DNA from: a virus
Taxonomy: Duplodnaviria; Heunggongvirae; Uroviricota; Caudoviricetes
Direction: 5' to 3' (one strand)
DNA: 5,101 nt
IMG/VR virus record: IMGVR_UViG_3300029043_000076
The translations under genes were made by a program, and so were the position numbers. How positions within the stretch are numbered: the first letter of the stretch is position 1; each line of letters starts with the position of its first letter. Positions 2 through 4,185 of this stretch are shown here, piece after piece. The notes under the pieces are model-generated. The model was not told where the DNA came from. It did no database searches and saw only the letters and a list, made by a program, of their open reading frames with translations.

Positions 2-103
2 CTAAAAACTAGTATTAAGACTATCACTTATTTAAGTGATATTGGTTGTCTGGAGATTCAGGGGGCCAGTCTAGGCGGAACGGTCAGAGAGATTGAGGTA
101 TGA
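2..103 (+). CDS. 3' end of upstream gene (partial; by position the endolysin of the lysis cassette); stop TGA at 101-103 overlaps the Rz start (ATGA)
   Basis: The frame starting at position 2 is open from the window edge to TGA 101-103, while the other two + frames hit stops at 3-5 and 10-12. The last 9 codons (GGTVREIEV) resemble the lambda R C-terminus (GGTVREIDV, from memory); the upstream 24 codons do not, and are AT-rich. The gene upstream of Rz in lambdoid phages is normally the endolysin. Confidence 0.4.
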
Positions 104-567
104 GCAGAGTAACCGCGATTATCTCCGCTCTGGTTATCTGCATCGTCGTCTGCCTGTCATGGGGTGTTAATCATTACCGTGATAACGCCATCGCCTACAA
201 AGAACAGCGTGATAAAAAAATCAGTGAGCTGAAGCAGGCGACCGCCACCATTACTGACATGCAGCAACGCCAGCGTGCTGCTGATGTACTCGATGCTAAA
301 TACACGAAGGAGTTGGCTGATGCGAAAGCTGAAAATGATGCTCTTCGGCGCAAGCTTGATAATGGTGGTCGGGTGCTCGTCAAAGGAAAATGCTCTGTGC
401 CATCCTCAGCCGAAACCTCCAGCGCCTCCGGCATGGGCAATGATGCCACCGTCGAACTCTCTCCAGTTGCTGGACGAAACGTTCTCGGTATCCGGGACGG
501 AATCATCAGAGACCAGACAGCACTGAGAACGCTTCAGGAATATATCAGGACGCAATGCCTTCGATGA
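100..567 (+). CDS. Rz: Rz i-spanin (inner-membrane spanin subunit)
   Basis: 155 aa ORF. N-terminus [21 protein letters not shown] is nearly identical to remembered lambda Rz ([21 protein letters not shown]), followed by a shared [19 protein letters not shown] segment. N-terminal transmembrane helix plus charged helical periplasmic domain. GAGG lies just upstream of the ATG. Confidence 0.9.
320..526 (+). CDS. Rz1: Rz1 o-spanin (outer-membrane lipoprotein), embedded in the +1 frame inside Rz
   Basis: 68 aa [24 protein letters not shown]... lying entirely within Rz in another frame. Signal peptide with lipobox VVGC, then proline-rich [16 protein letters not shown], matching the remembered lambda Rz1 pattern (MLKLKMML...VVGC...PPPPPAWIMQPPP). 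AAGGAG at 305-310 sits 9 nt upstream of the ATG at 320. The ORF track starts this frame at 275; 320 is the homology- and RBS-supported start. Confidence 0.8.
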
Positions 568-894: not shown

Positions 895-985
895 TCGCCG
901 TATTCCCGTATTAACAGAGACCGTAGCCCGACGGGGAACTCCTTCTGCGAGAGTGTGCGGGAATAATCAAAAACGATGCACACCG
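895..985. other. Non-coding element with dyad symmetry (arms TATTCCCG 901-908 and CGGGAATA 958-965); candidate structured RNA or protein-binding site
   Basis: 8-bp inverted-repeat arms separated by 49 nt. The stretch GACGGGGAACT..CTGCG.GAGTGT.CGGGAATAAT.AAAACGATGCACAC.GGGTTT closely matches, as far as I can recall, the lambda sequence lying between bor and the ORFs upstream of cos. No ORF frame is conserved across it. Confidence 0.3.
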
Positions 986-1190
986 GGTTTTTACCGCGTT
1001 TATGGTTCGCGGGTTTGTCCCTCATGCTCGCCAGTCCTGTGCGGGGGTGGAAGAAACAGGATACTCACACAGATTCTTGTGGGCACGATGCTATTCCTTT
1101 CTGGATTATCCCGATGCCATTCATGCAAGGCGCTGTATCAGACGTTCGTCATGGCTGTCAGGCTGACGGGTCCTCCCGGTGGGGTGGCCT

Positions 1191-1382
1191 GCCACGGGGC
1201 GGGAGCGTCGCGGAAAAAGGCTAGTTTTTGCATTTTTATTGGCCACCATCATCTTTGCATCTTATTGATTATTAATGGTTATTTGTTTTTTGCATGTCGA
1301 ATTGAGTGTTTTTTGTTCGACATCGAACGCGTTTTCTTAAAGTTGTTCGCACGATGCATGTTTAAAGCTCTCCGGAGGAAAT
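1191..1382. other. cos site: candidate cosN nicking region (12-nt cohesive end about 1197-1208) plus cosB-like region with repeated motifs upstream of the small terminase gene
   Basis: ACG|GGGCGGGAGCGT|CGCGG at 1194-1213 aligns with lambda cosN ACG|GGGCGGCGACCT|CGCGG: identical flanks, 8 of 12 identical in the overhang. It lies 186 bp upstream of the Nu1-like ATG (about 190 bp in lambda). The interval contains TTTGCAT direct repeats at 1227-1233, 1254-1260 and 1289-1295, an AT-rich block at 1261-1290, and the inverted repeat GTTCGA-CA-TCGAAC at 1315-1328. Confidence 0.5.
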
Positions 1383-1874
1383 ATGGATCATGAGTTGAAA
1401 AACCTGGTGCTGAATATTAATCAACTGGCGGCTTTATCTGGTCTGCACCGCCAGACTGTCGTGGCAAGACTGAAAAACATTCGTCCCGCTGGTGGACATG
1501 ACAAACTCAAGCTATACCGGTTGACCGATATTCTGACTGAATTTATGGGGTTACCACCGCCGGTTGCTGAGGGCAAAATGGATCCACATGAACGCAAAGC
1601 CTGGTATCAGTCTGAACGTGAGCGTCTTAAGTTCGAACAGGAAACGGCACAACTCATTCCGGCCAGTGATGTCAGACGGGAGTTTGCCATCTGGGCAAAA
1701 GCGGTCGTGCAGGTGCTGGAGACATTACCGGATATTCTGGAACGTGACTGCGGCCTGCAGCCTGCCGCTGTGAGCCGTGTTCAGTCCATTATTGATGATC
1801 TGCGCGATCAGATAGCCCTGCGGGTGACCGAAGCAGGTGCGGATGATGAGGAGGAATTACAGCAGGAGGAGTAA
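1383..1874 (+). CDS. Terminase small subunit (Nu1-like)
   Basis: 163 aa, immediately upstream of and overlapping the large terminase (TAATG). N-terminal helix-turn-helix-like segment LNINQLAALSGLHRQTVVARL, then a PAGG...LY motif comparable to lambda Nu1 (KKQLADIFGASIRTIQNW ... RGGGKGNEVLY); acidic C-terminus. GGAGG at 1374-1378 sits 4 nt before the ATG. Confidence 0.85.
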   Translation: MDHELKNLVLNINQLAALSGLHRQTVVARLKNIRPAGGHDKLKLYRLTDILTEFMGLPPPVAEGKMDPHERKAWYQSERERLKFEQETAQLIPASDVRREFAIWAKAVVQVLETLPDILERDCGLQPAAVSRVQSIIDDLRDQIALRVTEAGADDEEELQQEE

Positions 1875-3976
1875 TGCTGAATCAGGAAACCGCAAAGGCA
1901 GCACGAACCGATTCAGGTTATATCCTTCGCGCACCGAGACGAATGCGGGTTGCTGATGCCGTTGCTCAGTATATGCGGGTGCCCATGGGGGCAGGGAACT
2001 CAGTCCCGTGGGATCCGCTGGTGGCACCGTATGTTATTGAGCCGATGAACTGCCTGGCCTCGCGTGAATACGACGCAGTGATATTTGTTGGCCCGGCACG
2101 AACCGGCAAGACTATCGGCCTGATTGACGGCTGGGTGATTTACAACGTGATTTGCGACCCTGCGGATATGCTGATCATTCAGATGACGGAGGAAAAAGCC
2201 CGCGAACACTCCAAAAAACGACTCGCCAGAACGTTTCGCGTCAGCCCGGAAGTGGTCAGTCGCCTGAGTCCGAACAAAAATGACAACAACGTTTATGACA
2301 GAACATTCCTTGCTGGCAACTACCTGAAAATCGGCTGGCCGTCAGTCAATATCATGTCCTCATCAGATTATAAATGCGTCGCGCTGACGGATTATGACCG
2401 TTTTCCGGAAGATATTGATGGCGAGGGGGATGCTTTCTCTCTTGCCTCAAAACGTACCACAACATTTATGTCCAGTGGTATGACGCTGGTGGAGAGTTCC
2501 CCCGGCAGGGATGTGAAGGATGTGAAATGGCGACGGACTTCACCGCATGAGGCTCCACCAACCACTGGGATACTGTCGCTCTATAACCGTGGCGATCGCC
2601 GTCGCTGGTACTGGCCCTGTCCACACTGTGGTGAGTATTTTCAGCCCTGCGGCGATGTGGTTGCTGGTTTCCGTGATATTGCCGATCCCGTGCTGGCAAG
2701 TGAGGCGGCTTATATTCAGTGTCCTTCCTGTTCAGGACGGATTATGCCTGAACAAAAACGTGAGCTGAACGGACGTGGGGTCTGGCTGCGGGATGGTGAA
2801 TCCATCAATGCGGATGGCAGTCGTTATGGTGATCCCCGACGCTCACGTATTGCGTCATTCTGGATGGAGGGTCCGGCAGCTGCTTACCAGACACTCTCGC
2901 AACTCGTTTACAAACTGCTTACTGCAGAACAGGAATACGAGACAACCGGAAGTGAAGAAACACTCAAGACGGTTATCAATACCGACTGGGGATTACCTTA
3001 TCTTCCCCGCGCCAGCATGGAGCAACGAAAAAGTGAACTGCTTGAGCAGCGGGCAGAGCCAGTTCCTTCCCGCAGTGTGCCGGATGGCGTTAATTTCCTT
3101 GTGGCGACAGTGGATGTGCAGGCGGGACGTCATCGCCGTTTTGTGGTTCAGGTAACGGGCTATGGCAGCCGTGGCGAACGCTGGATTATTGATCGTTACA
3201 ACATCACGCAGTCATTGCGCGGTGACAGCGACGGGGAGAGCCAGCGAATTGATCCGGCCAGTTATCCGGAAGACTGGGATGTCCTGCTGACGGATGTTTT
3301 TCATAAAAGCTGGCCGCTGGCCTCCGATCCTTCTCAACAAATGCGACTGATGGCAATGGCGGTGGACTCCGGCGGTGAAGACGGGGTCACTGATAATGCC
3401 TATAAATTCTGGCGTCGTTGCCGTCGTGATGGCCTTGGTAAACGTATTTACCTGTTTAAGGGCGACAGCATCCGGCGCGCAAAACTGATCACCCGTACAT
3501 TCCCTGATAACACCGGACGAACGGGCCGACGGGCGCAGGCCGCAGGTGATGTACCGCTCTGGCTTCTTCAGACGGATGCCCTGAAAGACCGGGTGAATAA
3601 CGCGTTATGGCGTGACTCGCCAGGTCCCGGCTATGTGCATTTCCCTGACTGGCTGGGGAGCTGGTTTTACGACGAACTGACGTATGAAGAGCGGAGCAGT
3701 GACGGGAAATGGAGTAAGCCGGGTCGCGGTGCCAACGAAGCTTTTGACCTGATGGTGTATGCCGAGGCTCTGGTCATTCTGCATGGATACGAAAAGATCC
3801 GCTGGCCGGATGCACCGGAGTGGGCGAGCCGGGAAACCTGGCTGGAGTGTGTCCCGGACAGTACCGAACCGTCACCCTCACCGGAACCGGTATCCACGCC
3901 TGTTAAAAAACAAAAACGGAAGAAAACAGTAACTGACGATGTTAACCCCTGGCTGACTTCCGGAGGATGGTTATGA
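1874..3976 (+). CDS. Terminase large subunit (lambda gpA family)
   Basis: 700 aa. Walker A GPARTGKT (nt 2090-2113). CPHCGEYF motif with a second CPSCSG (nt 2618-2731) paralleling lambda gpA ACPHCGEE. Nuclease-region motif FLVATVDVQ comparable to lambda YLTAGIDSQ. AGGAGGAG ribosome-binding site directly upstream. Gene order Nu1-A-W-B as in lambda. Confidence 0.95.
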   Translation: MLNQETAKAARTDSGYILRAPRRMRVADAVAQYMRVPMGAGNSVPWDPLVAPYVIEPMNCLASREYDAVIFVGPARTGKTIGLIDGWVIYNVICDPADMLIIQMTEEKAREHSKKRLARTFRVSPEVVSRLSPNKNDNNVYDRTFLAGNYLKIGWPSVNIMSSSDYKCVALTDYDRFPEDIDGEGDAFSLASKRTTTFMSSGMTLVESSPGRDVKDVKWRRTSPHEAPPTTGILSLYNRGDRRRWYWPCPHCGEYFQPCGDVVAGFRDIADPVLASEAAYIQCPSCSGRIMPEQKRELNGRGVWLRDGESINADGSRYGDPRRSRIASFWMEGPAAAYQTLSQLVYKLLTAEQEYETTGSEETLKTVINTDWGLPYLPRASMEQRKSELLEQRAEPVPSRSVPDGVNFLVATVDVQAGRHRRFVVQVTGYGSRGERWIIDRYNITQSLRGDSDGESQRIDPASYPEDWDVLLTDVFHKSWPLASDPSQQMRLMAMAVDSGGEDGVTDNAYKFWRRCRRDGLGKRIYLFKGDSIRRAKLITRTFPDNTGRTGRRAQAAGDVPLWLLQTDALKDRVNNALWRDSPGPGYVHFPDWLGSWFYDELTYEERSSDGKWSKPGRGANEAFDLMVYAEALVILHGYEKIRWPDAPEWASRETWLECVPDSTEPSPSPEPVSTPVKKQKRKKTVTDDVNPWLTSGGWL

Positions 3977-4185
3977 ACCAGAATGATATCGAAGCCATGA
4001 TTCAGCGTTATACGGAAGCTGAAATGGCGGTGCTGGACGGAAAATCCGTCACCTTTAATGGTCAGCAGATGACCATGGAAAACTTATCTGAGATCCGGCA
4101 GGGACGGCAGGAGTGGGAGCGCCGCCTTGCGGCTCTGATTACACGACGACGGGGGCATCCCGGGTACCGGCTGGCGAGGTTCTGA
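3973..4185 (+). CDS. Head-tail joining protein (lambda gpW-like)
   Basis: About 70 aa between the large terminase and the portal. C-terminal RRRGHPGY resembles lambda gpW QRRRGPAGFYV. The ORF track starts at 3967, but GGAGG at 3962-3966 is directly adjacent to that ATG; the ATG at 3973 has 6-nt spacing and overlaps the terminase stop (ATGA), so 3973 is the preferred start. Its stop overlaps the portal start (TGATG). Confidence 0.75.
   Translation: MNQNDIEAMIQRYTEAEMAVLDGKSVTFNGQQMTMENLSEIRQGRQEWERRLAALITRRRGHPGYRLARF

Follow-up and report, generated by a model that had tools for sequence, protein, structure and literature searches.

Phages lambda and 21 have cosN and cosQ in common, while their cosB sequences and the specificity of their Nu1 proteins differ. 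Among lambda-like phages cosQ and the CG flanks are conserved, and bp 7–12 of cosN commonly differ (Feiss et al., PMC4669245): compared with the cosN of lambda, that of N15 differs at positions 9 and 12 and that of Gifsy-1 at positions 8, 9 and 11. Mutations in cosN's right half show little phenotype, since cosB anchors the large terminase (PMC4669245). R3 occupies bp 50–65 in lambda and bp 48–60 in N15 (PMC9026076), and a tripartite cosB has been reported for Gifsy-1 (Feiss laboratory comparisons).

Phages LLS and mEp213 have the cohesive end GGGCGGCGCGCT (PMC12315714). In Cr-LKS3, whose small terminase is of the DUF1441 type and is 37% identical to the one described below, 5' cohesive ends have been reported, and the bases that flank and start the overhang are as in lambda-like phages (PMC9303873).

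The window, i.e., the whole stretch of DNA that was analysed, is 5,101 nucleotides long and comes from a virus of the Caudoviricetes (IMG/VR record IMGVR_UViG_3300029043_000076). An earlier note had placed in it a lambda-type cos site with a cohesive-end sequence that is not that of lambda. This reading is borne out by a cosQ–cosN signature and by terminases of the lambda type.

Genes around the site

In the window, the lysis genes of a lambdoid phage or prophage meet its packaging genes. The lysis genes are Rz (100–567, Pfam Phage_lysis) and Rz1, which is embedded in Rz (320–526, Pfam Rz1, E 3.7e-21); a spanin gene fragment at 555–707 is annotated in RefSeq as a pseudogene. Between the lysis genes and the gene of a DUF1441 protein lies a non-coding stretch, and cos is found at its end, just before the DUF1441 gene.

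The latter (1383..1874, plus strand) encodes a small terminase subunit of 163 amino acids which belongs to the DUF1441 family (E 2.4e-44), an unnamed family in Pfam. The protein matches PHROG 141, "terminase small subunit", with an E value of 2.6e-77, and also PHROG 57, the family of lambda Nu1, with an E value of 3.7e-9 over residues 7–159; reciprocally, lambda Nu1 matches PHROG 141 (E 5.6e-8, residues 2–150). When the DUF1441 alignment is compared with the single Nu1 sequence by hhalign, the two are colinear from the helix-turn-helix on, but the match is weak (E 0.005, probability 6.7%). Judged by these profile comparisons, the DUF1441 small terminase is a distant homologue of Nu1. Its N-terminal helix-turn-helix reads LNINQLAALSGLHRQTVVARLKN. 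Sequence and profile searches of the PDB gave no meaningful match, and a single-sequence AlphaFold2 model has a mean pLDDT of 50, with values below 50 over the N-terminal 66 residues, which makes the model unusable.

The large terminase subunit (1874..3976, plus strand) is a protein of 700 amino acids of the lambda gpA family (Pfam GpA_ATPase, E 8.5e-72, and GpA_nuclease, E 1.1e-85; PHROG 15). It is followed by a head–tail adaptor (3967–4185) and by a portal gene of the lambda family which starts at 4185 and whose reading frame is open to the window end. The small terminase, the large terminase and the adaptor are all intact. As at a lambda-type cos site, a gpA-family large terminase with ATPase and nuclease domains is thus encoded just downstream, and the small terminase is a homologue of Nu1 with a DNA-binding helix-turn-helix at its N-terminus.

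Two open reading frames, 953..1393 and 976..1224, run across the site. The earlier note had dismissed them as genes on the grounds that cleavage at cos would cut them. The conclusion stands, but the reason is weak, since these frames are intact in prophage, circular and concatemeric DNA. Of 15 distinct relatives, 5 have a frameshift or a truncation in 953..1393, and 976..1224 meets a stop by codon 31 in 9 of 27; neither has a match in Pfam or PHROG, and RefSeq places no gene between the spanin fragment and the DUF1441 gene. On these comparisons the two frames are very unlikely to be genes, even if a hypothetical protein has been annotated on part of 953..1393 in some phage records.

The interval could also carry a transcription signal, either a terminase promoter or a terminator at 1314–1329, where the sequence can form a weak hairpin which, with its T-run, resembles a terminator. 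However, sister types have not kept this hairpin, no sigma-70 promoter was found when 540–1420 was scanned, and a scan of 500–1450 against Rfam returned only sub-threshold chance matches. It is therefore extremely improbable that the interval encodes a protein or holds a transcription signal.

The cosQ–cosN signature and the predicted cohesive end

The sequence GGGTCCT at 1168–1174 (plus strand) is an exact match to the 7-bp cosQ of lambda. Its end is 22 bp from the top-strand nick, compared to 23 bp in lambda. By analogy with lambda (PMC4669245), it would be the packaging-termination signal. The earlier note, which considered 1191–1382, overlooked this element, which lies outside that interval. 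The Fur-box-like palindrome that lambda has to the left of cosQ is absent from the window.

Homology to lambda identifies the nicking region, cosN, at 1194–1213 (no strand assigned), which reads ACG, then GGGCGGGAGCGT, then CGCGG. Based on this homology, the nicks are predicted at 1196/1197 on the top strand and at 1208/1209 on the bottom strand, which predicts a 12-nt 5' cohesive end, GGGCGGGAGCGT (1197–1208, plus strand). As the earlier note had seen, this 12-mer differs from that of lambda, GGGCGGCGACCT, at 4 of 12 positions; the mismatches are at positions 7, 8, 9 and 11, and 8 of the 12 bases are identical. The left half of cosN, GGGCGG, and the flanks that adjoin the nicks (ACG to the left, CGCGG to the right) have exactly the sequence of lambda. 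The claim that the flanks of lambda are kept exactly is an overstatement, since the sequences further out differ (CCTGCCACG versus CAGGTTACG on one side, CGCGGAAAAAGG versus CGCGGGTTTTCG on the other).

The locus has the features of a lambda-type site: the left half GGGCGG, CG at both nicks, 12 bp between the nicks, and GGGTCCT at about the 23 bp upstream of the nick that is typical (22 bp here). The composite GGGTCCT-N19-ACGGGGCGG-N6-CGCGG occurs once in the window, at 1168–1213, and in none of 200 shuffles. The variation in cosN is confined to bp 7–12, as in the natural cosN variants described in PMC4669245.

The block that separates cosN from R3, CGCGGAAAAAGGCTAGTTTTTGCATTTTTA (1209–1238, plus strand), is equivalent in position to lambda bp 13–42. 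The conservation is partial: in an ungapped comparison with lambda bp 13–45, 18 of 33 positions are identical. The block is nearly identical across cosB types which diverge further downstream, and it may contain an I2-like site.

If the cohesive end's first base is taken as bp 1, the ATG of the small terminase (1383) falls at bp 187, with 186 nt before the gene, and the start of lambda Nu1 is at bp 191. The spacing is therefore almost that of lambda, as had been claimed. Nevertheless, the distance from the cohesive end to the small-terminase start ranges from 130 to 202 in relatives, and it is thus not a constrained feature.

The same cohesive end is present in deposited phage genomes. The GenBank records of cdtI (AB285204) and Tritos (OV696610) begin exactly with GGGCGGGAGCGT and end with ...CCTGCCACG. 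The likeness of their left ends to the window includes the 12-mer, both flanks and cosQ, which are identical, and the first ~33 bp after the end, which are near-identical. The cosN of Gifsy-1 from Salmonella, when read directly, is GGGCGGCAGCGT, from which the window differs only at position 7. Gifsy-1 also has a conserved cosQ, but its small terminase is of the Nu1/phage 21 type and its R sequences are different.

A survey of IMG/VR retrieved 79 loci with a closely related small terminase, and cosN could be located in 77 of them. Of the 77, 68 have GGGCGGGAGCGT as their 12-mer, and the others have minor variants, namely GGGCGGGAGCGG (7 loci), GGGCGGGAGCAT (1) and GGGCGGCAGCGG (1); one further locus has GGGCGAGAGCGT. 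cosQ is GGGTCCT in 70 of the 77 and GGCTCCT in 7, and in 71 loci the start codon is 186 nt away. The comparison with the cos sites of related phages, which had been suggested as a check, finds the same end in cdtI, in Tritos and in most of these loci.

The exact 20-mer ACGGGGCGGGAGCGTCGCGG (1194–1213) is present in at least 120 IMG/VR contigs. Among the matches listed, the 75 loci with enough flanking sequence fall into four cosB/small-terminase types: 39 are of the mEp460 type, 27 of the cdtI type, 8 of the window type and 1 is of another type. Positions 1150–1400 of the window have matches in 2168 of 5426 complete E. coli genomes, in 1414 of them over at least 80% of the length. When the 12-mer was searched in full texts, the only papers that came up were on human and rat and had no relation to it; cosN has been the subject of a dedicated survey (Vahanian et al. 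2017, Virology 509:140).

By these sequence counts there is nothing unusual about the variant end: no other cosN is as frequent among the hundreds of related prophages, and it is the deposited left end of cdtI and Tritos. The site is a real lambda-type cos, though of an ordinary kind, and the lambda-like E. coli prophages to which it belongs form a very common family.

Two other records bear indirectly on the position of the virion ends. That of Ayreon, a virion-derived assembly, reads ...CCTGCCACGGGG, continues with ~150 nt of chimeric sequence which includes a fragment of the small-terminase gene, and then resumes with CGTGGAAAAAGG.... Contiguity therefore breaks exactly inside cosN. The record of mEp460_4F5 is cut 5 nt to the left of the predicted nick, and 3 nt are missing at the right nick. 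In several public records, the sequence is wrongly joined or cut close to cosN.

Phages PhiR40_1, PhiR47_1 and PhiR55_1 are 99.7% identical to the window over 1100–1450, and they serve as infecting phages in a preprint (bioRxiv 10.1101/2025.11.03.685801). Since these phages infect and share this cos, the cos type belongs to viable phages. This matters for the idea that the site is the decayed, non-functional cos of a cryptic prophage, in which the four changes in the overhang would be damage rather than a working variant. Many lambdoid prophages of E. coli are indeed defective, and the spanin fragment at 555–707 of the window is a pseudogene according to RefSeq. However, the genes from the small terminase to the adaptor are intact and the portal frame is open to the window end, GGGCGGGAGCGT is the majority allele, linked to four cosB types, the cos of plaque-forming phages is almost the same as that of the window, and all four changes are in the tolerant right half of cosN (PMC4669245). 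Decay is therefore highly improbable, and a working variant of the lambda-type end is the preferred reading.

The GGGCGGGAGCGT ends of such a variant would be complementary to each other, and mismatched with lambda ends at 4 of 12 positions. Mismatches at 2 of 12 positions of the cohesive ends already lower the yield to about 10% of that expected (PMC4669245). By analogy, these ends probably fail to pair productively with those of lambda.

cosB and the proposed recognition of the site by the small terminase

Downstream of the conserved block, the window and lambda have little sequence in common. Over bp 46–190 they agree, without gaps, at 37 of 145 positions, about as many as expected by chance. 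The R boxes of lambda, CGTTTCC-TTCT, are not found here: R sequences of the CGTTTCC(N)TTCT type are absent, and the end is not GGGCGGCGACCT, so that the packaging specificity of lambda itself is not found at this site. The earlier note was therefore right that the interval lacks the R sequences of lambda, and their absence fits a small terminase with a different DNA specificity, as it proposed. It overlooked that the layout of the R elements is present, as a lambda-like R3–I1–R2–R1 architecture built from a different 8-bp box.

This architecture emerges from a comparison of the intervals between cosN and the start codon in nine cos types whose small terminases are homologous to that of the window: the window itself, mEp043/Eeyore/Kp4865-4, CP-1639, VT1-Sakai, Fels-1, Gifsy-2, Chris1, the mEp460 type and one IMG/VR type. 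Positions were counted from the first base of the overhang. In all but one of the nine, the elements are laid out as in lambda, each at its own set distance from cosN: at least one 8-bp box on the plus strand at bp 42–57, a match to the IHF consensus YAANNNNTTGATW which starts at bp 61–66 on the plus strand (at bp 76 on the minus strand in Gifsy-2), one box on the minus strand at bp 95–101, and one on the plus strand at bp 119–125. The consensus of the boxes across cos types is TC(R)(W)CA(Y)(Y).

In the window, the candidate R3-like box is CCATCATC (1246–1253, plus strand, bp 50–57), in the same place as R3 of lambda and N15. The candidate R2-like box is TCGACATG (1293–1300, minus strand, bp 97–104) and the candidate R1-like box is TCGACATC (1317–1324, plus strand, bp 121–128). 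Between R3 and R2, an IHF-like site, CATCTTATTGATT (1258–1270, plus strand, bp 62–74), matches 12 of the 13 positions of YAANNNNTTGATW, comparable to I1 of lambda. Taken alone, a match with one mismatch is not enriched above chance within the window; the consensus is matched at 13 of 13 positions in the same place (bp 61–66) in CP-1639, Chris1, the mEp460 type and the cos of cdtI. The order and orientation, R3(+), IHF site, R2(–), R1(+), with R3 at about bp 50, are those of lambda, although R2 and R1 are only 24 bp apart in the window, unlike in lambda. The sequence thus has what defines a complex cosB, i.e., three related R sequences with R2 inverted and an IHF-like site between R3 and R2.

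A weight matrix made from the boxes of the other phages only ranks R1, R3 and R2, in this order, as the top three sites in 1209–1382, and a sum of scores as high as theirs is attained by 8 of 2000 shuffles. Boxes homologous to R3 are found at bp 42–54 in the eight other cos types, the R2 slot holds a minus-strand box at bp 95–101 in eight of the nine types and the R1 slot a plus-strand box at bp 119–125 in all nine. All three slots are filled in eight of the nine types (at most 3 of 1000 shuffles per type), but the box pattern and the slots were defined and tested on the same small set of related sequences, in which shared ancestry inflates positional conservation.

The boxes are more alike within one phage than between phages. 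Those of Fels-1 are three times TCATCATC, those of Gifsy-2 are TCAGCACT, TCGACACT and TCGACACT, and those of the mEp460 type are TCATCACC, TCGACACC and TCATCACT. Such concerted change is to be expected if one protein recognises all the copies. R3 of the window (CCATCATC) agrees with R1 and R2 (TCGACAT-) at only 5 of 8 positions. R2 and R1 together form an 8-bp inverted repeat, ATGTCGAA (1294–1301) and TTCGACAT (1316–1323), which is longer than the one pointed out in the earlier note and was overlooked there.

The earlier note had proposed other recognition elements for the small terminase, namely three TTTGCAT repeats and/or a palindrome at 1315–1328. The three copies exist, are exact and lie on the plus strand at 1227–1233, 1254–1260 and 1289–1295 (span 1227–1295). 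A 7-mer present three times is nominally unusual, since some 7-mer does so in only 0.5–3% of dinucleotide shuffles of the interval (non-overlapping copies, low-complexity words excluded). In addition, copy 2 (bp 58–64) falls inside the R3 interval of lambda (bp 50–65, PMC9026076), where it abuts R3 of the window and fills the gap between R3 and the IHF-like site, and copy 3 overlaps R2 by 3 nt.

However, the repeats are not conserved among phages with the same small terminase. In 21 distinct window-type sequences, whose small terminases are about 99% identical, copy 3 is changed to TTTGTAT (T at position 1293) in 15 and copy 2 to TTTACAT (A at position 1257) in 3, while none of the 21 has a change in R3, R2 or R1. 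In the eight other cos types with homologous small terminases, nothing corresponds to copies 2 and 3. Copy 1, which aligns with lambda bp 31–37, is part of the block 1209–1238 common to cosB types whose small terminases have different N-termini, and is therefore unable to encode specificity.

The palindrome, GTTCGA..TCGAAC with perfect 6-bp arms, is present at 1315–1328 as described, but it is not kept in sister types: the mEp460 type reads GTTCATCACTAAC. From this comparison, the palindrome is a by-product of R1 and chance symmetry. Because copies 2 and 3 vary or are absent while the R boxes are invariant, the TTTGCAT repeats are probably there by accident, as T-rich sequence, and the remaining chance of a contribution is small. 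A role of the repeats or of the palindrome as the recognition elements of cosB is thus very unlikely, and their conservation pattern makes the R boxes the likely terminase-binding sites.

The relatives of the window support the assignment of the R boxes from another side. In the mEp460 group (mEp460, Ayreon, phi458 and vB_EcoS-569R4), cosQ, cosN, the 186-nt spacing and the positions of R3, I1, R2 and R1 are as in the window, and the C-terminal ~100 amino acids of the small terminase are nearly identical. In contrast, the N-terminal ~60 amino acids, which include the helix-turn-helix, diverge (HRQTAAARLQN against HRQTVVARLKN), and the boxes end with CACC or CACT instead of CATC. The divergence of the N-terminal region parallels that of the cosB sequences. 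The window and the mEp460 group therefore stand in the same relationship as lambda and phage 21. Covariation between the recognition helix and the box ending (CATC versus CACY) was also considered, but ten sequences give only hints (GLHRQT with CATC, GAHRQT with CACT) and no claim is made.

The cos sites of mEp213, mEp043 and LLS go with a DUF1441-type small terminase that is 62% identical to that of the window, and they have boxes of the same family (TCATCATC, TCGACATC and TCACCATC) at equal distances from cosN. They differ by the right half of the overhang (GGGCGGCGCGCT) and by a shorter cosB, in which the small-terminase start is at bp 130 and R1 overlaps the start codon. The cos of cdtI and Tritos, on the contrary, has the same overhang, an IHF-like site in the same place, a gpA-type large terminase and a DUF1441 small terminase (42% identity), but from bp 38 or so onward its cosB is no longer like that of the window, its boxes being repeats of TTTTCACCTG rather than TC(R)(W)CA(Y)(Y), and the recognition helix of its small terminase is different. 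In lambda, whose small terminase belongs to Pfam Phage_Nu1 rather than DUF1441, the large terminase is of the same gpA family.

Proposed packaging model and possible meaning for the DUF1441 family

It is very likely that 1168–1382 serves a lambda-like temperate phage or prophage as its cos, and that it acts by the following mechanism. The DUF1441 small terminase would bind R3, R2 and R1 via its N-terminal helix-turn-helix, and an IHF-type bend at 1258–1270 would bring R3 and R2 together. The gpA-type large terminase would thereby be positioned on cosN, where it would cut the top strand after 1196 and the bottom strand after 1208, with an offset of 12 bp between the two nicks, to give the 5' cohesive end GGGCGGGAGCGT. 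cosQ (1168–1174) would serve termination at the downstream cos of the concatemer. We infer the binding of the small terminase and of IHF at cosB from the arrangement and conservation of their putative sites.

The finding of cos is mostly routine, considering that the variant end is already deposited for sequenced phages and is present in a large fraction of E. coli genomes. It has practical consequences for annotation: phage and prophage records of this family could open at the position equivalent to 1197 instead of at arbitrary points, and the "hypothetical protein" calls that span cos, being spurious, need not be kept. What is new, to a modest degree, is the candidate map of R boxes for the DUF1441 small-terminase family; neither a description of such a map nor an analysis of the family itself was found in the literature searched. 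This layout is a testable map for packaging specificity in the family.

On a wider scale, the comparison leads us to favor, with some reserve, the view that the DUF1441 family uses a compact lambda-like cosB made of TC(R)(W)CA(Y)(Y) boxes, at about bp 45–57 (plus strand), 95–104 (minus strand) and 119–128 (plus strand), with an IHF site at about bp 61–74, and that at least four cosB/small-terminase specificity modules share one cosQ–cosN with the end GGGCGGGAGCGT. If this is true, four modules on one cosQ–cosN in the E. coli prophage pool would be a larger natural version of the lambda/21 situation, and the shared cosQ–cosN would allow cross-termination and the recombinational swapping of packaging specificity among co-resident prophages.

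Lysis genes and other features upstream of cos

The o-spanin gene Rz1 is embedded in the +1 frame of the spanin gene Rz (100-567), on the plus strand at 320-526 (Pfam Rz1, E 3.7e-21; lipobox LIMVVGC). The end of Rz is overlapped by a 50-aa ORF on the same strand (555-707), which matches PHROG 11822, a family of unknown function, with an E value of 8.6e-38. The equivalent region of NZ_CP043181 is marked in RefSeq as a pseudogene, a fragment of the i-spanin Rz, and the counterpart in PhiR40_1, a phage almost identical to the window around cos, is listed as a hypothetical protein. Downstream of the lysis genes and before cos, the plus strand carries a hairpin that resembles an intrinsic terminator, AGCCTCGTATTCGCGGGGCT, followed by TTTTATT (741-770). 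PhiR40_1 also lists a hypothetical protein for a 58-aa ORF on the minus strand (849-1025), for which Pfam gives no match.

Sequences around cosQ and cosN in related phages

In lambda (right end), mEp043, CP-1639, VT1-Sakai, Kp4865-4 and Eeyore, a few bases separate cosQ from a Fur-box-like palindrome on its left, GATAATCATTATC; cdtI has a degenerate copy of the palindrome. The cos type of the window differs from that of lambda in this respect: positions 1137-1167 hold unrelated sequence where lambda has the palindrome.

The distance between the two conserved flanks of the predicted nicking region cosN, ACG| and |CGCGG, is 10 nt in CP-1639, 11 nt in VT1-Sakai and 14 nt in Gifsy-2, rather than 12. 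Either these three phages have overhangs of another length, or the nick in them does not fall at the right flank. An overhang of 9 nt has been reported for Cr-LKS3 (PMC9303873).

Public records disrupted at cosN

The record of Ayreon, a phage of the mEp460 group, is interrupted exactly within cosN by a chimeric stretch of about 150 nt (MF807953.1, 44250-44708, equivalent to 1197-1211 of the window), and the junction reads ...CCACGGGG / insert / CGTGGAAAAAGG... The insert, which includes a piece of Ayreon's own small-terminase gene, appears to be an artefact of assembly at the physical ends of the DNA; a "putative late gene regulator" is annotated across it. The record of mEp460_4F5, from the same group (LR595868.1), is opened 5 nt to the left of the predicted top-strand nick. 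Exactly where the bottom-strand nick is predicted, 3 nt (TCG) are missing and the record reads GGGCGGGAGCG-CGG, probably another assembly error related to the ends.

Mosaic small terminase

The C-terminal ~100 aa of the small terminase of the window (1383-1874) are almost identical to their counterparts in the mEp460-type protein (L088, 189-683), whereas the N-terminal ~60 aa, which hold the helix-turn-helix, and the adjacent cosB, the predicted terminase-binding interval, have diverged. The small terminase is thus mosaic, and the pattern suggests that recombination has exchanged cosB and the DNA-binding domain as a module.
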